Origin: an uncultured Candidatus Saccharibacteria bacterium
Lineage (GTDB): Bacteria; Patescibacteriota; Saccharimonadia; Saccharimonadales; UBA10212
Direction: 5' to 3'
NCBI GenBank assembly: GCA_965231085.1
Contig: OZ246413.1
Location: 91,991-155,990, forward strand
Length of the DNA stretch: 64,000 nucleotides
How positions within the stretch are numbered: the first letter of the stretch is position 1; each line of letters starts with the position of its first letter. The notes under the pieces were generated by a model, which was not told the DNA's origin, made no database searches, and saw nothing but the letters and a program-made list of their open reading frames with translations. Below are positions 1,013-64,000 of the stretch, piece after piece. The position numbers and the translations under genes were made by a program.

Positions 1013-1369
1013 ATGGAATTACCAAAAAAATATTTGCACGATCGGTTAGTCCTAATACTGATAACTTTAATGGCCGCGCTTTTAACCATTGGCGTAGCTA
1101 CGGTGTTAGTTAGGTTTGATATATCAAAAAATCCAACGACCATAGTTGCCTGGCGACCTAATATCTCTGGTTCAAGTTATCAGAGCGGAAAACCGATAGA
1201 TATTTATAGCTTAGCTTTCTTTATGATCGTTATTTCAGTTAGTGCTGTGGCTTTAAGCGCTCGCCTATACAATCTGCGCCACTCACTGTCGGTATTTATA
1301 CTGGCCTCAACCAATTTCCTGCTACTACTATCAGCTATTGTGGCTAACGCGCTTATCTCTTTACAATAA
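1013..1369 (+). CDS. Small integral membrane protein, function unknown
   Basis: 118 aa with three or four hydrophobic segments. It ends 5 nt before the glycosyltransferase gene, so co-transcription is likely. Confidence 0.5.
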   Translation: MELPKKYLHDRLVLILITLMAALLTIGVATVLVRFDISKNPTTIVAWRPNISGSSYQSGKPIDIYSLAFFMIVISVSAVALSARLYNLRHSLSVFILASTNFLLLLSAIVANALISLQ

Positions 1370-1374
1370 AGCTT

Positions 1375-2976
1375 ATGCGTTCAATCGAAATACCCCAGCC
1401 AGAAGATAGAGATTGGCGTTATAAAGCCTTTGAAAAGCTACCAGGTGTAATGTCTTTACTGGTTCTTATGCTGCCTTTTATTTTGGGCTATATTAGCCCT
1501 CGAGCTGCGGCCTACTTTATAATTGCCTACTTGTTAACGTGGTTTATCTATATTATGGCAGTTGATTATCGGGCACTGCTTGGTTGGCGGACCATGAACA
1601 AATATAAAGTGCTGCCATGGCAAAAGCTTAACGCTGATCTAGAGACACTTAGTGTAAACACTAAAGCCCCCGCTTGGCATGCCCGCAACATCCAAAGAGT
1701 AGGGAAGAATCTAGGAGATAAGCGTGTAAAACCAAGCGAGATATACCAGGTTCTAATCATCGCGTTCTGGAAAGAGTCTAGAGACATTTTAGAGCCGACA
1801 GTTCAGTCGGTTTTAAGTTCAGATTACGATCGCAAGAAGATGATTTTATACCTTGCATACGAAGAGCGAGGTGGCCCAGAAGTTGAAAAGACAGCTCATG
1901 ATTTAATCCGCGATTACGGTGATAAATTCTTTTATGCCAAAGCTGTAAAACATACTCTTCTGGACCATGAAATCCCAGGCAAAGGGGCAAACATAACTTG
2001 TGCAGGCAAGGTTTTGGCCGCTGATATTAAGGCCAAGGGCATAGACCCGCTAAAAGTTATTGTTACCACCCTAGATTCCGACAACCGCCCCCATTCTCAG
2101 TACCTAGCTTCGCTTGCCTACACTTATTGCTCGACCGAGGACCCTCTACATGCTTCATATCAACCAATCCCAATGTTTTTAAACAACATTTGGGACGCCC
2201 CAGCGCCCATGAGAGTTATTGCGACAGGTAATTCTTTTTATAACATTATGCTGTCCACTAGACCGCACATGCTTCGCAACTTTGCATCTCATGCTCAACC
2301 ACTAGCCGCTTTAATTGATACTGATTTTTGGAGCGTCAGGACAGTAGTGGAAGATGGTCACCAGTTTTGGCGCACTTATTTCCGATACGATGGCCATCAC
2401 AATGTTTATCCAATATATATACCCATATACCAAGACGCGGTTTTAACAGACAGTTATAAATCAACAATTAAAGCTCAATTTTTGCAGGTCAGACGCTGGG
2501 CCTATGGTGCTTCAGACATTGCCTATGTTGCAAACCAAGGCTTTTTAAAGAAAAACAATATTCCAAAATACAAAGTTTTTGCTAAATTCTTCCGTTTACT
2601 ACAAAACCACGTTGGCTGGGCCACAATGCCTTTGGTCTTGCTGTTTTCTGCATATCCACCTCTGTTTTTGAATCCCCAAAGTTTTGTTGCAAATCAGCTG
2701 CCTCACTTTTCTAGTGCCTTCCAGACCATTGCCATGTCCGGATTAATAGCCAGTTTGCTAGTATCGCTTAAAACTCTACCGCCAAGACCAGAGAGATATA
2801 AACGACACCGTACGATCTGGATGGTTATCCAGTGGGTATATTTCCCAATCACAGCGATAATATTTGGTTCTTTTGCAGCTATTAGCTCTCAGACCAAACT
2901 ATTGCTTGGCCACTACATGGGAACGTTTGATACTACTGACAAAGTAATAAAGAGCGAGAGATCAGCTGTAGTCTAG
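1375..2976 (+). CDS. Membrane-bound family-2 glycosyltransferase (processive, cellulose/chitin-synthase-like)
   Basis: 533 aa with N- and C-terminal hydrophobic helices. The LDSDNRP acidic motif and QVRRW (QxxRW) are typical of processive GT2 enzymes. Confidence 0.75.
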   Translation: MRSIEIPQPEDRDWRYKAFEKLPGVMSLLVLMLPFILGYISPRAAAYFIIAYLLTWFIYIMAVDYRALLGWRTMNKYKVLPWQKLNADLETLSVNTKAPAWHARNIQRVGKNLGDKRVKPSEIYQVLIIAFWKESRDILEPTVQSVLSSDYDRKKMILYLAYEERGGPEVEKTAHDLIRDYGDKFFYAKAVKHTLLDHEIPGKGANITCAGKVLAADIKAKGIDPLKVIVTTLDSDNRPHSQYLASLAYTYCSTEDPLHASYQPIPMFLNNIWDAPAPMRVIATGNSFYNIMLSTRPHMLRNFASHAQPLAALIDTDFWSVRTVVEDGHQFWRTYFRYDGHHNVYPIYIPIYQDAVLTDSYKSTIKAQFLQVRRWAYGASDIAYVANQGFLKKNNIPKYKVFAKFFRLLQNHVGWATMPLVLLFSAYPPLFLNPQSFVANQLPHFSSAFQTIAMSGLIASLLVSLKTLPPRPERYKRHRTIWMVIQWVYFPITAIIFGSFAAISSQTKLLLGHYMGTFDTTDKVIKSERSAVV

Positions 2977-2984
2977 ACTGATCG

Positions 2985-3404
2985 TTAGCGATTTGGCTGA
3001 ACCGAGGGGTGGTTAGCCATATATCTAAGCCAGGCCTGCCTATTGAATCGCTTCAAAACTTCACTAGCTGTCTTGCTAATCTCCTGAGCGTTTATAGGGC
3101 CTTTTGAAGCGTCTCTCAGTATTCTTTGAGTTACTGTGTCCGTTAGCTCCTGAGCGTCAAGGTAGGGGCTTACACGGTCTTTTAGACTATCAAGAATGTC
3201 GCTATATAGTTTTCCAGGCAAATACGGTTCAAGCTGGCCAGTATCTGTTTTTACAGATAAGGCGTTGGGCAGATAAGTAGCCTCGTAGGTCGTAAAGACG
3301 GCATTGCACTCCTGGCATCTGCGTCTTCGCCACACATTGTTACTGCGCCTCTGTAGACGGCTGTTTATTACCTCAGTATTAGCTTTGCAGTACACACAAA
3401 CCAT
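2985..3404 (-). CDS. NrdR-like zinc-ribbon regulator paralogue with a divergent ATP-cone
   Basis: The N-terminus CxxC...RRRRCQECNAVFTTYE matches the NrdR zinc ribbon (compare 62914..63414). The C-terminal ~90 aa is ATP-cone-like but divergent. Confidence 0.7.
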   Translation of the reverse strand: MVCVYCKANTEVINSRLQRRSNNVWRRRRCQECNAVFTTYEATYLPNALSVKTDTGQLEPYLPGKLYSDILDSLKDRVSPYLDAQELTDTVTQRILRDASKGPINAQEISKTASEVLKRFNRQAWLRYMANHPSVQPNR

Positions 3405-3420
3405 GACAATATATTGTCAT
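3403..3420. promoter_or_regulatory. Perfect 18-bp palindrome atgacaatatattgtcat with an NrdR-box-like core, overlapping the start codon of the NrdR-like gene
   Basis: The sequence equals its own reverse complement. The core CAATATATTG fits the CwAtATaTwG core of the published NrdR-box consensus. Confidence 0.45.
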
Positions 3421-3477
3421 AACGCTAGATAAAATGCTAGTGGATAACTATTTCTTATTGTGGGTAAGAAAACAAAA

Positions 3478-3500
3478 AACCCTGGTTACTAACCAGGGCC
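3478..3500 (-). terminator. Intrinsic terminator (minus strand) after the candidate small ORF
   Basis: Hairpin ccctggtt-acta-aaccaggg. On the minus strand it is followed by tttttt. Confidence 0.5.
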
Positions 3501-3531
3501 CCACCTCTATTTATCGGTTGTCCAGAGACGC

Positions 3532-3639
3532 TTATTTCTTATTTCGACGGATTCTGGAACTGGCCGATGTATCGCTTAGAATTTCTTCGTAAAAAAGTTT
3601 GAATTCTTCAAGCGGTTTGCCTGCTTGTTTAGCACTCAA
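3532..3639 (-). CDS. Candidate 35-aa small protein (MSAKQAGKPLEEFKLFYEEILSDTSASSRIRRNKK)
   Basis: Hand translation. TTG start 5 nt after gaggtga, with the terminator at 3478..3500 downstream. It is below the ORF-track length cut-off and I recognise no family. Confidence 0.25.
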   Translation of the reverse strand: MSAKQAGKPLEEFKLFYEEILSDTSASSRIRRNKK

Positions 3640-23342: not shown

Positions 23343-23452
23343 GAATGAAGATTTTTTGGGGTCTAGTTTAATGTGCTCTCAAAAATGTCCATTGAAAATT
23401 GAATAGTGCAAATCAACGTCAGTTCGAAAATCTGAAGTTAATATCAGATTCT

Positions 23453-25013
<1,561 letters not shown>

Positions 25014-25294
25014 AGGGAGAAACTAGCATTAAGGCAGAGCAATCTACTTAAGAGCTAGGTCGATCTCGATAAGTTTTACCAGTACTGAAAACTTATTTTC
25101 CCCGCACTTACGATGCAGTAAAGTTCCTACCGGACTTTAACTGTTATCAAACAAAGTCTCTAGTAAATAGATTTTGTCAAAGCTGCAGTCACAATAACGT
25201 TAGTTATTGTCTGTATCGTAAGTGCGGGGCGGGAAACAGTACTAACAATCATTGGCTGACGTTGAGATGCACTATTCAGAGTTCAATAAAAGAC

Positions 25295-25324
25295 ACCCGT
25301 CTAGGTATAGGCGGGTTGTTTTTT
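25295..25324 (+). terminator. Terminator-like hairpin between the 16S gene and tRNA-Ile
   Basis: 9-bp stem acccgtcta/tataggcgggt (one G-U pair), loop ggta, then tgttttttat. Confidence 0.45.
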
Positions 25325-25371
25325 ATAGGGGTATTGAGGTACAATAACTCCGTTACAAATCCCAATAACAG

Positions 25372-25448
25372 GGGGCTATAGCTCAGCTGGTTAGAGCGCG
25401 TCACTGATAATGACGAGGTCTGTGGTTCGAGTCCACATAGCCCCACCA
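25372..25448 (+). tRNA. tRNA-Ile (anticodon GAU), CCA encoded
   Basis: ggggcta...cgtca-ctGATaa-tgacg...tgtgg-ttcgagt-ccaca-tagcccc-a-cca. Confidence 0.95.
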
Positions 25449-25468
25449 CGTGCTAAGATTTAAATTAC

Positions 25469-25545
25469 GGGGACATAGCTCAGCTGGCTAGAGCACCTGC
25501 TTTGCAAGCAGGGGGTCCGGGGTTCGAATCCCCGTGTCTCCACCA
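25469..25545 (+). tRNA. tRNA-Ala (anticodon UGC), CCA encoded
   Basis: ggggaca...cctgc-ttTGCaa-gcagg...cgggg-ttcgaat-ccccg-tgtctcc-a-cca. The G3-U70 identity pair is present. Confidence 0.95.
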
Positions 25546-25578
25546 TCATGGTAATGGTTATCATTACCGAATATCTAA

Positions 25579-25607
25579 AACGACCTCTATAGACGCGGTC
25601 GTTTTTT
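25579..25607 (+). terminator. Intrinsic terminator after tRNA-Ala
   Basis: Stem aacgacc/ggtcgtt, an 11-nt loop, then tttttt. Confidence 0.6.
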
Positions 25608-25671
25608 GTTTGTCCGGACATCTACCTAATACATCTGTTGGCACGGGGTTCGTTCCCGCTTCGTGTCTTTT

Positions 25672-26235
25672 CTACGAGAAGATTTTATGGAGCTCGGCTG
25701 TCGTTAAGCCACAATCTGAAGCCGTTTTGGCTATCAAGGCCAGAATGGACGCGACATCTTTTACTGCGCCTAATCCCGACTTCACTTTATCTATGAACTT
25801 ACGCTCCTTTGACCCTGGGTTGAAGGAGTTCTGCTTTGTGGCAAGTATGTCGGTTATGTCGACTATGAGTGTTTGAGTAACAGCAACCTCTTGGGTTACA
25901 GTGACTTGGTTTGTGGGCGAGTGCGATGGTGCGTAATGCGGTTCTTTTTCCTTCAAGTAAGAAGCTCCAAGCCACGCAACTAAACCACTGGCCGAAGTTT
26001 TTAGGTCGATTGTGCTAGCGGTTCTTTCTTGAGGGTTGTAGTTCTGTATATACGGAAGAAATCTATTTAGATCTTCCTGCAACAGGCTCGATAGGCTGGA
26101 AACTATATGTTCGTATTGCGTAACCGGACCGTTATATATCCGATCCGAGGCACTGGGCTCTCCAAGCCCGTATAGCAAACCCCGAAGTTCTTCATATAAG
26201 GCATTTACTTTACTGTAGATTGCTTCTTCTTCCAT
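25672..26235 (-). CDS. Hypothetical protein (187 aa) inside the rRNA spacer, antisense to the rRNA genes
   Basis: An intact ORF for which I recognise no family. It is predicted to be helical. Confidence 0.5.
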   Translation of the reverse strand: MEEEAIYSKVNALYEELRGLLYGLGEPSASDRIYNGPVTQYEHIVSSLSSLLQEDLNRFLPYIQNYNPQERTASTIDLKTSASGLVAWLGASYLKEKEPHYAPSHSPTNQVTVTQEVAVTQTLIVDITDILATKQNSFNPGSKERKFIDKVKSGLGAVKDVASILALIAKTASDCGLTTAELHKIFS

Positions 26236-26269
26236 TTCTTATATTATATAGCCTTTCAATTAATAGTCA

Positions 26270-26617
26270 TCATCGTGTAAGGCTTGGCCTTAAGACATAT
26301 CTTCCGTGCCCGACTCTTAGGTACTTCGAGTTCGGCCCCATGGAGTTGGCGCTCAGGCACTGCTTGATGGTGCCCCAGACGATCGGATGACCTAGTCTCT
26401 GCTCGCAGGCCAGGTGAATCTCCTTGGCCCTCATGGCTCCGACGGAGCCAGAGAGTACCTCGTACACGGTCTGATAGATCTCGCCAGGGCGGGGCTTTAC
26501 GGCTGCCGGCTTGATCTCTGAGCTGGTCTTGGCCAGTAGACCAGACACTCGTTTCGTGCTATCTTGAATCTCAAGTTCTACTCGAGGGTTCGAAAGTGCC
26601 CCCATTAGTTCCACCAT
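26270..26617 (-). CDS. Small winged-helix (HARE-HTH-like) DNA-binding protein, G+C-rich
   Basis: 115 aa. EIYQTVYEVL...MRAKEIHLACEQRLGHPIVWGTIKQCL...YLRVGHGRYVL resembles wHTH domains that end in RVGRGxYxL. Hand-counted G+C is 58-63 percent in the lines covering 26341..26520. Confidence 0.5.
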   Translation of the reverse strand: MVELMGALSNPRVELEIQDSTKRVSGLLAKTSSEIKPAAVKPRPGEIYQTVYEVLSGSVGAMRAKEIHLACEQRLGHPIVWGTIKQCLSANSMGPNSKYLRVGHGRYVLRPSLTR

Positions 26618-27009
26618 AAAAAGGACTTCTCAAAACGAAGTCTTTTTTAGTTTTAGGCCTACCTTATGCTAAAAGATGAATTACTTAGGGGCTAAATCGT
26701 AGAGTTTTTGACATTAGTTTTAGCTTTACAACCCCTGTTAATCTTGCTAAGATTACAGCTGAAGTTTGAGTGCGGCCAGTCGGCCAGTTGAGGGAAAATC
26801 ACAACGGCTAGTCCTCTGGGCTTACTCAAACACTCTTTTGCCAACAATCTATTGATTATCGGTGGAGTGAGTTAGCTTGCAACCTTAACAATTAATCGCA
26901 AAACATGAGAAAGCAAATGACAGACAGCGAATTGGTGAAAACCAATAGCTAGTCAATTGCACAATTAACCGACTCTAGTAAGTCTTTAGATTTACTAGGG
27001 TTGATATCG

Positions 27010-30366
<3,357 letters not shown>

Positions 30367-30646
30367 GAACCAGAATATGTACGCCCGTTAAACGGTGTGC
30401 GTTTTCTGGGAAGAGTGCATTGACTAGCTTTTGGTGATCATCTATACTCACTTAACAACAGTTAAAAGAGATAGTTGGCTCACAAAGTTGTTTGCTTAAC
30501 AACATGTAGTGCGATTAAACACGTGCATTTGGTTGCCGATGCAGCCAAGCCTTCCCCCATCGGGATGAGTAGCCCGACAAAATGTATTCCATTTTGCCGG
30601 CGCGATGAGAAAACCCCCGAAGGGGCTTCTCATAAGGCTTTGCCGC

Positions 30647-30760
30647 ATCGGTGCCCATGGCGCTGGGGAAACACCTGTTACCATTCCGAACACAGCAGTT
30701 AAGCCCAGCAGCGGTTACAATACTTGGGTTTTAGCCCTGGGAAAATAGCACGGTGCCGAA
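30647..30760 (+). rRNA. rrf: 5S ribosomal RNA
   Basis: Helix I pairs tcggtgcc with ggtgccga. The internal ccattccgaacacagcagttaagc matches the conserved 5S loop B/C region. Confidence 0.85.
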
Positions 30761-30769
30761 TTATAGTGA

Positions 30770-62766: not shown

Positions 62767-62849
62767 TTAACAGATAAGAAATCTTGTGATTAATACACCA
62801 GAAAATGCTTGCGCTTGCACTACATCCGGGGCTAATATAGGTAGTACGA

Positions 62850-62865
62850 ACACTATATGTAGTGA
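62850..62865. promoter_or_regulatory. Candidate NrdR box upstream of nrdR-nrdJ
   Basis: acactatatgtagtga matches 14 of 16 positions of the consensus acaCwAtATaTwGtgt as I remember it. Confidence 0.45.
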
Positions 62866-62913: not shown

Positions 62914-63414
62914 ATGAAGTGCCACCACTGTCAATCAGTTGAAAATAAGGTAATAGAGTCTCGCGATGTTGCTGACGGCGAGGCTATTCGTCGACGCCGC
63001 CAGTGTCTGGACTGTGGCTACAGGTGGACTACTTATGAAAGACTGGAACGACCAAGTTTGGTTGTAGTCAAGCGCGATGGAACCCGACAGCTTTTTAGTA
63101 GAGAAAAACTACTAGAAGGTTTGCAGCACGCCTGTGAAAAAACATCAGTGACCAACCTGCAACTAGAAAGTTTTGTTGCCGGTATTGAACGCGAGCTTTA
63201 TGGACGTGGCGAACCGGAGGTTTCTAGTACCGATATAGGCGAGCTGATCATGGCCGGATTGCCAAAGCTTAGCGAAGTAGCTTATGTGCGTTTTGCAAGT
63301 GTCTATAGAAAGTTCAAAGACATTTCTAGTTTTGAGCGTGAACTATCGCGAATAAGAGAAGAAAAAACGACTACTAAAGACGATCCAAAACCAAAAAAAC
63401 AAGCTAGAAAATAA
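62914..63414 (+). CDS. nrdR: Transcriptional repressor NrdR
   Basis: MKCHHCQS...RRRRQCLDCGYRWTTYER zinc ribbon plus an ATP-cone (VVKRDGTRQLFSREKL...VAYVRFASVY). Confidence 0.92.
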   Translation: MKCHHCQSVENKVIESRDVADGEAIRRRRQCLDCGYRWTTYERLERPSLVVVKRDGTRQLFSREKLLEGLQHACEKTSVTNLQLESFVAGIERELYGRGEPEVSSTDIGELIMAGLPKLSEVAYVRFASVYRKFKDISSFERELSRIREEKTTTKDDPKPKKQARK

Positions 63415-63581
63415 AATACAAGAAAAAAACAAGAGGCTTGGATGTTGCTTTGGGCACTTTTTAGACTTACTATAAAAAGCGTCTAGAGGAGCAAGGGGTG
63501 GTGCTTTTATCTAAAAAGTACCTCGCGAGCTTTAAGATAAAAACAACAAAATAAAACAACAAATATAAGAGAGGGATGTAT

Positions 63582-64000
63582 ATGGCGGAAGCTACCAAAA
63601 CTAGGGTTCAAAGACTCTTCACGAAGCCTAAGACCAAGGCTTATGACTCACTGAAATGGGTCAAAAGAGATTCACTAATTGCTAATCCAATGACCGGTAA
63701 AGCGGTCTTTGAGCAAAAGGATATAGAATTTCCGGAAGGCTGGTCGCTTAACGCTATTAATATTGTGGCTCAGAAATATTTTTGTGGCACACCCGGCACC
63801 GATAGCCGAGAATCATCTCTTAAACAATTGATCGACCGAGTGGTTGATACCATAACGCGCCAGGGTAGCCAAGAGGGATACTTTACCAGTGATGCTGAAG
63901 CCGAAGATTTCCGAGAGGAGCTAAAATACATCCTAGCTACTCAACGAGCGGCTTTTAACTCGCCGGTTTGGTTTAATATTGGCGCGCCAGAGCGTTCTCA
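63582..64000 (+). CDS. nrdJ: Ribonucleotide reductase, probably class II (B12-dependent), N-terminal part; 3' end outside the window
   Basis: Hand translation from ATG 63582 gives MAEATKTRVQRLF...WSLNAINIVAQKYF...AAFNSPVWFNIGAPERS with no stop before the window end. It is absent from the ORF track because the frame is open-ended. Confidence 0.75.
   Translation, partial: MAEATKTRVQRLFTKPKTKAYDSLKWVKRDSLIANPMTGKAVFEQKDIEFPEGWSLNAINIVAQKYFCGTPGTDSRESSLKQLIDRVVDTITRQGSQEGYFTSDAEAEDFREELKYILATQRAAFNSPVWFNIGAPERS

Follow-up and report, generated by a model that had tools for sequence, protein, structure and literature searches.

To our knowledge, NrdR has been regarded as the single, universal repressor dedicated to ribonucleotide reductase (RNR) genes, acting as an ATP/dATP-driven tetramer on two boxes. 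Canonical NrdR dimerizes via its zinc ribbons and forms tetramers via its nucleotide-loaded ATP-cones (PMC12176259). The NrdR box is a 16-bp partial palindrome with six highly conserved positions, C4, A6, A8, T9, T11 and G13; isolated boxes are not bound, and pairs need a linker of 15-16 bp (PMC13584703), spacers of 14-17 or 24-27 bp being given elsewhere (PMC12051234). Here, we analyse a 64,000-nucleotide (nt) stretch of contig OZ246413.1 from an uncultured Candidatus Saccharibacteria bacterium (the whole stretch is hereafter the window), which encodes, besides a canonical NrdR, a divergent NrdR-like protein (the paralogue) whose start codon is overlapped by a perfect 18-bp palindrome. On balance, we lean towards reading the paralogue as a self-repressing NrdR derivative, probably dimeric, with an input from DnaA, as suggested by comparative sequence analysis.

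The closest described systems are the canonical NrdRs of Streptomyces coelicolor and Escherichia coli (PDB 7P37, 9FXK and 9FVR). Like them, the paralogue has a four-Cys zinc ribbon and an ATP-cone fold, the residues R27, R29, E42, R17 and R28, and a DNA site with an NrdR-box core; unlike them, it carries N15, W26, a V, I or L at position 37 and H128, and the nucleotide ligands K50, R51, E56 and K62 are unconserved. It occurs alongside a canonical NrdR that is highly conserved, diverges faster and does not lie beside an RNR gene. At the DNA level, the palindrome resembles the known box pairs (16-bp boxes with a 15-16 bp linker, 5' of RNR operons) in its six conserved positions, its AT-rich centre and its overlap with the core promoter, whereas it is single, has an 18-bp symmetry with invariant outer ATG/CAT, and is flanked by TGW/WCA and not by ACA/TGT.

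Two further systems offer partial parallels. Some RNRs contain degenerate ATP-cones that do not bind nucleotides, such as the second ATP-cone of Pseudomonas aeruginosa NrdA; there too the fold is kept and the ligand residues are lost, whereas the cone of the paralogue belongs to a transcription-factor scaffold, where it may serve oligomerization, bind another ligand or have no function. DnaA binds the E. coli nrdA promoter (PMC12176259), and the joint DnaA binding and NrdR-box repression at nrdAB recall the paralogue promoter, where both would be predicted from motifs. The E. coli promoter controls an RNR, whereas the one described here would control a regulator paralogue from a leaderless extended -10 element.

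The NrdR-like paralogue and its family

The paralogue gene occupies positions 2985..3404 on the minus strand of the window and encodes a 139-aa protein that begins MVCVYC and comprises a zinc ribbon followed by a domain of ATP-cone fold with non-conserved ligand residues. Its score against the Pfam model Zn_ribbon_NrdR (PF22811) was 46.4 bits for a cut-off of 27.2, with two CxxC motifs, while it remained under the cut-off of the Pfam ATP-cone (17.4 versus 25.8 bits) and far under that of the NCBIfam NrdR equivalog TIGR00244 (55.7 versus 124.65 bits). The canonical nrdR (62914..63414, plus strand, 166 aa), which precedes a class II RNR gene with its start at 63584, scored above the cut-off of all three models (73.4, 67.5 and 185.5 bits for Zn_ribbon_NrdR, ATP-cone and TIGR00244, respectively). 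The open reading frame (ORF) and these domain scores agree with an earlier reading of the window made from the letters only (the sequence-only reading), which had noted a divergent 139-aa NrdR-like gene besides the canonical nrdR and nrdJ. Canonical nrdR shows the usual gene order, ftsZ-nrdR-nrdJ, in the window and in the orthologous loci; the paralogue gene is not adjacent to any RNR gene, and the alignment between the two proteins is confined to the zinc ribbon (36% identity over 55 aa).

In the NCBI annotation of a near-identical genome (99% identity), the paralogue is shortened to 116 aa by an internal GTG start and loses its first CxxC, presumably because the true ATG is devoid of a Shine-Dalgarno (SD) sequence. 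The present analysis corrects this systematic mis-annotation. Conversely, several family representatives bear spurious N-terminal extensions of 25-75 aa.

A word-indexed search returned 39 relatives of the paralogue, all 132-159 aa long, whose names, where given, were Saccharimonadales or 'NrdR', the latter from an automatic pipeline. In a scan in which each GTDB species was represented by a single genome, 77 orthologous loci were identified, nearly all in Saccharibacteria metagenome-assembled genomes (MAGs). With a threshold of E <= 1e-30, a full hidden Markov model (HMM) search against 1.84 billion cluster representatives retrieved 198 clusters (50% identity). One Babeliales label appeared in the word-indexed search and one in the species scan. 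As far as sampled, the family thus appears to be found in Saccharibacteria (Saccharimonadales) only. The analyses below use the 77 orthologous loci plus the window (n = 78), which provided 74 distinct upstream sequences; residue counts refer to 75 family members, and site scans covered 1.39 Mb of Saccharibacteria DNA in total. The orthologues are 35-61% identical to the paralogue of the window, whereas the top 120 canonical Saccharibacteria NrdRs are at least 76% identical to its canonical protein.

A full-text literature search retrieved no publication combining NrdR with Saccharibacteria, and among the papers listed by further searches none had a title or abstract about an NrdR paralogue, the frequent term 'NrdR2' being a construct name. 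Paralogues of NrdR are unmentioned in PMC12051234 and PMC12176259. The proteins reported here constitute an NrdR-derived family without description in the literature searched, a member of the NrdR superfamily that falls short of the equivalog model and lacks several defining features.

The C-terminal domain, which the sequence-only reading had called ATP-cone-like, is an ATP-cone by fold, as judged from three lines of evidence. The family profile aligned to PDB NrdR structures over positions 1-134 of 138 (E = 6e-21 for E. coli and 5e-15 for S. coelicolor); the AlphaFold2 model (predicted local distance difference test score, pLDDT, of 87) displays a three-stranded ribbon, a β-hairpin and four helices; and the top Foldseek matches of this model were NrdR followed by RNR ATP-cones, with root-mean-square deviations of 2-4 Å over about 90-100 residues.

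Residue roles were taken from PMC9110341 and PMC12176259 and mapped onto the 75 family members in S. coelicolor numbering; the S. coelicolor sequence used for the numbering matches every residue/number pair in the two papers. The zinc ligands C3, C6, C31 and C34 are invariant (75/75), and so are Arg27, Arg29 and Glu42, which form the zinc-ribbon dimer interface (PMC12176259). Among the five DNA-recognition residues of NrdR, Asp15, Arg17, Arg26, Arg28 and Arg37 (PMC12176259), only R17 and R28 are kept; D15 is replaced by N in all 75 proteins, R26 by W in 73 and R37 by V, I or L in 69. Of the top 148 family representatives, 136 carry the resulting N..W signature, against E..R in 120/120 canonical Saccharibacteria NrdRs.

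The residues experimentally needed for ATP/dATP binding by S. coelicolor NrdR, namely K50, R51, E56 and K62 (PMC9110341), lack conservation across the paralogues: position 50 is K in 10 and R in 17 of the 75 proteins, R51 is lost, and E56 and K62 are found in 36 and 43, respectively. The flipping residue Y128 is H in 67/75. The description of the paralogue as nucleotide-sensing, put forward in the sequence-only reading, is therefore not borne out at the family level, though the protein of the window keeps three of the four ligands. Since these residues are non-conserved, the canonical nucleotide-driven tetramer switch is probably not used, which would fit one box and not two; with the ribbon interface kept and the cone degenerate, the paralogue would be expected to sit as a dimer on a single box.

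A palindromic promoter with upstream DnaA-box-like motifs

The palindrome ATGACAATATATTGTCAT lies at 3403..3420, or -16..+2 when the A of the paralogue ATG is numbered +1, and we propose it as an operator consisting of a single NrdR-type box; it ends within the start codon, whose AT it includes. No purine-rich SD sequence separates it from the ATG. The perfect palindrome at the start of the gene and the missing SD had been pointed out in the sequence-only reading and are confirmed here. The palindrome is the sole match in the 64-kb window even when three mismatches are allowed (mean of 0.02 in shuffled sequences), whereas its 10-bp core CWATATATWG, with one mismatch, has 11 matches for 9.3 expected; as it is not enriched, the core by itself is not significant.

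The proposal of a regulatory site depended on the palindrome also standing upstream of the orthologues, and it does so in 75 of the 78 loci, mostly abutting the ATG as in the window, which argues against chance. The family consensus is ATGWCAAYATRTWGWCAT. When the alignment is anchored on the palindrome, the 74 upstream sequences have in common a gap-free block made of TTWTCCACTnG (-43..-33), TTTT (-30..-27), AGCG (-22..-19) and ATGWCAAYATRTWGWCATGGT (-16..+5), and the arrangement TTWTCCACTnG-N2-TTTT-N4-AGCG-N2-ATGWCAAYATRTWGWCATGGT has a fixed spacing in 75/78 loci. Positions T-15, G-14, C-12, A-11, A-10, A-8, T-7, G-3, T+2 and G+3 are invariant in all 74 sequences, and A-16 is conserved in 73. 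Because this block is kept while the proteins are 35-61% identical, the promoter DNA is more constrained than the gene. Within the block, the AGCG and TTTT spacer elements (3423..3434, minus strand; 3426-3423 and 3434-3431, respectively) are unexplained.

The palindrome is strictly associated with the paralogue. All 76 matches with up to two mismatches in the 1.39 Mb are at the promoter of a paralogue, and none at an RNR operon or a canonical nrdR. On a position weight matrix of the palindrome, its own sites score 19-30 bits and no other site reaches 10 bits. No palindrome was found outside its own promoter in the flanks of the 77 loci or in 736 kb of further Saccharibacteria contigs.

Symmetry is perfect at 16 sites, and the remaining ones pair 6-8 of the 9 positions. 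The variable symmetric positions are independent of each other (Fisher p of 0.14 and 0.74 for pairs 4/15 and 8/11, respectively), and pair 6/13 is an A-A mismatch in 17 of 75 sites. The lack of covariation and the frequent A-A mismatches are the behaviour of two half-sites and not of an RNA stem, and an RNA-hairpin reading of the palindrome was rejected on these grounds. Moreover, in 12 loci an insertion has moved the true start codon (of an MKC, MNC or MIC protein start) to a place 22-180 nt 3' of the palindrome, and the 18-mer plus GGT (CATGGT) is nonetheless kept; conservation is thus independent of the start codon, and the signal acts at the level of the DNA or promoter and not of translation.

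The left arm coincides with a proposed extended -10 element (3411..3419, minus strand), in which a TG (3419-3418; -15/-14) is followed, after one base, by the hexamer CAATAT (3416-3411; -12..-7), leaving 6 nt between it and the A of the ATG (3404). The family form of the hexamer is CAAYAT, which keeps the A at position 2 and the T at position 6; the TG, C-12, A-11, A-10, A-8 and T-7 of the proposed element all belong to the positions invariant in 74/74 loci. An upstream start codon is ruled out in the window by an in-frame TGA at -15..-13, and a hexamer ending 6 nt before the ATG has the geometry of a leaderless mRNA. The paralogue mRNA is therefore probably leaderless, and would start on the A of the ATG. 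In the same loci, the promoters of the neighbouring GT2-like operon present a -10 of the TAAAAT/TACAAT type 7-15 nt before the start codon and no SD, and short or absent leaders thus seem normal in these genomes. The interval between -10 and ATG varies in these GT2-like promoters, whereas at the paralogue promoter T-5, G-3 and C-1, which mirror A-10, C-12 and G-14, are nearly invariant. We read this extra constraint as the mark of a symmetric site at which a protein would cover both the -10 and the start point.

An intrinsic terminator (3476..3502, minus strand; 12-bp stem plus T-run) ends a small gene located upstream, and T-runs occur at the equivalent place in orthologous loci. Such a strong terminator makes the paralogue a separate transcription unit.

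Read in the frame TGWCAAYATRTWGWCA, the palindrome has the conserved base at all six NrdR-box positions, each invariant in 73-74 of the 74 loci, and its consensus core CAATATGTTG is that of the functional E. coli nrdDG box 2. No second box (at least 5/6 positions) was found at 14-17 bp on either side in any of the 74 loci, and at most one locus has such a box at each spacer of 24-27 bp. Box-like codons TGTATATATTGT (C-I-Y-C) present in many orthologues were considered and discarded as a second box, their centre-to-centre spacing being 19 bp and the window lacking them.

A canonical box pair is found 5' of nrdR in the window (62817..62865, plus strand), with box 1 GCACTACATCCGGGGC at 62817-62832, a 17-bp linker containing TAATAT, and box 2 ACACTATATGTAGTGA at 62850-62865. 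Together with five other nrdR loci, it yields the consensus gCACTAcAt.tGGGG for box 1, a 17-bp linker with a TAATAT -10, and ACACTAYATATAGTGA for box 2. Compared with these boxes, the palindrome has G·C for C·G at positions 2/15, A·T for T·A at 5/12, and two extra conserved outer bases. With the palindrome matrix, no canonical box in the 1.39 Mb reaches 10 bits, and this separation indicates two well-separated operator classes in these genomes.

Two side observations concern the canonical boxes. The 17-bp linker, which harbours a probable -10 in the window and in L078-L082, corresponds to the upper limit of the 14-17 bp reported for other phyla. At L191 (920-990), a near-perfect canonical NrdR box, ACACAACATATAGTGT, is preceded about 24 nt upstream by a DnaA box, TTTTCCACA, possibly a second promoter with both sites.

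Upstream of the paralogue promoter are two 9-mers resembling DnaA boxes in the same orientation, a proximal one, TTATCCACT (3439..3447, minus strand; -43..-35), and a distal one, TTACCCACA (3459..3467, minus strand; -63..-55), 20 nt further 5'. The proximal sequence, TTWTCCACT, agrees with TTWTNCACA at 8 of 9 positions, and each consensus position is held in at least 64 of the 74 loci. A distal copy (TTaYCCACA) on the same strand, 20-22 nt upstream, matches TTATCCACA at 7 or more of 9 positions in 53/74 loci, compared with 5% of background windows. The centres of the two boxes, near -39 and -59, are close to typical activator positions at promoters without a -35.

Neither the window nor the first 77 loci contain a dnaA gene. 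Six dnaA regions (about 1.8 kb in total) were compared, one (L110) being a chance find in an unrelated scan and five (L203-L207) being reached via its homologues; the region L203 is probably from the organism of the window itself, with DnaA, the paralogue and canonical NrdR recorded together on one contig, and L207 is from the same MAG as L014. Between yidC/rnpA (rpmH where called) and dnaA, each region contains an array (L110 1180-1330; L203-L207 about 960-1130) with two or three exact TTWTCCACW boxes. Four of the six show, on one strand, aAcCCACA, TTWTCCACT/G and then, 21 bp on, TTrTCCACA, the other two having one such box, and all six retain at least one conserved reverse box, ccTGTGGAAAA. 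The paralogue promoter resembles these arrays in its TTWTCCACW motifs, including TTWTCCACT, on the same strand at a spacing of about 21 bp, but has two boxes only and lies tens of kb from dnaA; in two chromosome-level records, the paralogue is 30-70 kb from the record end. In 5/5 dnaA loci with called genes, an unannotated ORF of 83-107 aa, without Pfam match, lies next to dnaN and shares its first part with the end of dnaA.

The 1.39 Mb contain 150 exact copies of TTWTCCACW: 66 are at paralogue promoters, 13 in the six regions upstream of dnaA (about 1.8 kb, against some 33 per Mb expected), and 71 elsewhere, the latter for about 45 expected. TTWTCCAC was also considered as a general -35-like element and rejected, with five copies for 2.6 expected in the window, the others being in unrelated contexts. 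From these motif matches we conclude that the upstream 9-mers are likely DnaA boxes, which would wire the paralogue promoter to DnaA.

Candidate regulation and competing explanations

The circuit that we infer comprises the binder of the palindrome, the transcription start, the oligomeric state of the protein, the part played by DnaA and whatever target lies downstream. In it, the paralogue would be transcribed as its own unit from the extended -10 (TG-n-CAAYAT), the leaderless mRNA starting on the A of the ATG. The most likely binder of the palindrome would be a zinc-ribbon dimer of the paralogue, which would cover the -10 and the start site and thereby exert negative autoregulation. Two phased DnaA boxes near -59 and -39 would add an input from the replication initiator, whether activating or repressing, and the ATP-cone would retain its fold with its nucleotide switch probably abandoned, in line with one box. 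The dimer model would jointly account for the single box, its extended symmetry and the residue pattern, and the altered base-reading residues would fit the altered flanks of the box. A conserved box-like element on the probable transcription start is what either of the two options raised in the sequence-only reading, autoregulation or control by NrdR, would predict.

Several observations weigh against a self-repressing, DnaA-responsive paralogue. CAAYAT matches TATAAT at only three of six positions, there is no recognisable -35, and a scan with the sigma-70 consensus called no promoter at the palindrome. The constraint on the palindrome could stem largely from the TG/-10 on its left and the start codon on its right. 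The paralogue promoter is the sole detectable site of the regulator, which leaves no visible output, although about 64 kb of this genome were covered and further targets may lie elsewhere. Operator variants show no specific co-variation with zinc-ribbon residues, the signal being mostly phylogeny; protein-operator co-evolution assessed by mutual information was uninformative for the same reason. The proximal DnaA-like box has T at position 9 where the consensus has A, and binding of DnaA is argued wholly from motif identity with the arrays upstream of dnaA. Lastly, the protein of the window keeps the equivalents of K50, E56 and K62 and might still bind a nucleotide.

The palindrome could instead be an ordinary NrdR box through which canonical NrdR represses the paralogue gene, making the paralogue a member of the RNR regulon. 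The match at all six box positions speaks for this, and so do a core shared with E. coli nrdDG box 2 and the finding that NrdRs from distant phyla bind one another's boxes (PMC13584703); according to PMC9110341, moreover, NrdR commonly regulates its own gene. Canonical NrdR nevertheless needs two boxes at 14-17 or 24-27 bp, and no such pair exists in the 74 loci beyond the single locus at most per 24-27 bp spacer. Its boxes in the same clade also differ from the palindrome in their flanks (positions 1, 2, 5, 12 and 15) and score below 10 bits on its matrix, and the palindrome travels strictly with the paralogue gene, so that we consider control by canonical NrdR unlikely. The factor could also be unrelated to NrdR, reading the palindrome and possibly TTWTCCACTnG, TTTT and AGCG as well, with the likeness to an NrdR box being coincidental. 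Such a factor would give a role to the conserved AGCG and T-tract blocks, which are otherwise unexplained, and the tie of either NrdR protein to the site is itself deduced from sequence comparison; given that the site co-occurs exclusively with an NrdR-family gene and matches every diagnostic NrdR-box position, we see only a slim chance of this.

With no dedicated repressor, the symmetry might be a by-product of a constrained extended -10, initiation region and leaderless AUG, since the left arm coincides with the TG/-10 and the right end with the start codon, and these genomes appear to make common use of promoters with a short leader or none. A by-product of this kind hardly accounts for T-5, G-3 and C-1 mirroring the -10 half within an interval that is free to vary in other promoters, for A-16 being kept in 73/74 loci, or for the 18-mer plus GGT surviving in the 12 loci whose gene now begins at another codon, and we find it improbable. 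An RNA hairpin in the 5' untranslated region that sequesters the AUG can be drawn, with a 7-bp stem including the AU of the AUG, if transcription began upstream. Yet no upstream promoter is apparent, the stem is AU-rich with a 4-nt loop, its variable pairs show no covariation, with A-A at pair 6/13 in 17/75 sites, and the element is kept far from the real AUG; we give this hairpin next to no credence.

A bolder version of the self-repressing, DnaA-responsive dimer would have the paralogue no longer sense ATP/dATP, bind one extended box as a dimer within a DnaA-controlled circuit of the replication cycle in these ultra-small CPR bacteria, and deliver its output not by classical binding to operators at other sites but via protein-protein contacts, for example in mixed oligomers with canonical NrdR through ATP-cone surfaces, or with the replication/segregation machinery, so as to modulate dNTP supply or initiation. 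We regard this extension as a long shot, quite unlikely as it stands. The Foldseek search retrieved a Soj-NrdR model from another organism in the PDB (9a6n).

Surroundings of the locus and meaning of the family

Convergent with the paralogue is a pair of genes encoding membrane proteins of 118 and 533 aa (1013..2976, plus strand). The convergent synteny is found in 73 of the 77 loci and the gene pair in 68-73; the 533-aa protein has a sub-threshold GT2 match (24.1 versus 27 bits) and no NCBIfam match. The sequence-only reading had raised the possibility that the paralogue controls its neighbours, the GT2 synthase and tgt. No site related to the palindrome was found at the promoters of the GT2-like operon or tgt, nor elsewhere in the 1.39 Mb, and conserved convergence is uninformative in such highly syntenic genomes; regulation of these neighbours was accordingly rejected and no functional link to them is drawn.

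Directly 5' of the paralogue on the same strand, a small ORF of 35 aa (3532..3639, minus strand; TTG start with SD; ..LEEFKLFYEEI..RIRR..) precedes the terminator. In 64 of 73 loci, the same position is occupied by a 35-42 aa ORF with a TTG or GTG start and an SD, followed by the terminator, with the consensus ..LExFKLFYEEI...K...NRIRRxR. It has no Pfam match, and the exact sequence of the window copy is absent from a collection of 15 billion proteins, suggesting that gene callers probably miss it. The small ORF may or may not be part of the paralogue system. A complete rRNA operon (16S, two tRNAs, 23S, 5S) lies at 23452..30761, about 20 kb from the paralogue, and is probably the reason why many MAG contigs bearing an orthologue end 25-30 kb from it.

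In several species, the start codon of the paralogue is separated from the conserved promoter by the insertion of a highly conserved, structured element about 85 nt long. It has the organization TTATGAGACACC-CTTCGG-GGTTTCTCATCGCGCCGG-(variable hairpin)-CGGGCTGCTCTTCCCGAG, with visible compensatory changes, and copies were located at L003 3888-4000, L038 1364-1467, L043 3904-4000, L044 3888-4000 and L120, and also in L083-L202. A riboswitch in the 100-nt leaders of L003, L038, L043 and L044 was contemplated and rejected, as the element has no Rfam match and is dispersed: it is present in at least 120 metagenome contigs, beside unrelated genes (among them typA, lepA-like, ruvB, recF and murC) or following tRNAs, and in either orientation. 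The unrelated neighbours and both orientations identify it as a dispersed structured repeat inserted at the paralogue start, and it looks like a Saccharibacteria repeat of the MITE (miniature inverted-repeat transposable element) or REP (repetitive extragenic palindrome) type with an SD-like 3' end. Other insertions of 90-180 nt, made of long imperfect hairpins of short repeats, occupy the same spot just past +5 in L007, L013, L016, L024 and L030. The 5' end of the paralogue appears to be an insertion hot spot, a new start codon being gained after each insertion.

Another structured element, a conserved long hairpin, lies between nrdR and nrdJ (63443..63494, with a second helix to about 63552) and is also present in L078, L080, L081 and L082. 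Its sequence, GTTGCyTTGGGC...hairpin...CGTCTAGrGGAGCA, shows compensatory changes at seven pairs among the five sequences, and no Rfam family matched it at the gathering threshold. The class II RNR gene may thus have a structured leader here.

Beyond the paralogue itself, the analysis provides evidence for common leaderless promoters with an extended -10 in Saccharibacteria, as well as a likely DnaA-box consensus and an array upstream of dnaA for this group. The family would break several of the rules established for NrdR, being a second, fast-evolving lineage with altered DNA-reading residues, unconserved nucleotide residues and a single extended box. If confirmed, it would mean that evolution has put the NrdR scaffold to another regulatory use, and the N15/W26 versus D15/R26 forms would amount to a natural experiment on how zinc-ribbon pairs read DNA. 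The putative DnaA boxes would tie the paralogue to the control of replication in Saccharibacteria. These bacteria have genomes of about 0.7-1 Mb with very few regulators, so that each conserved regulator is likely to be important.

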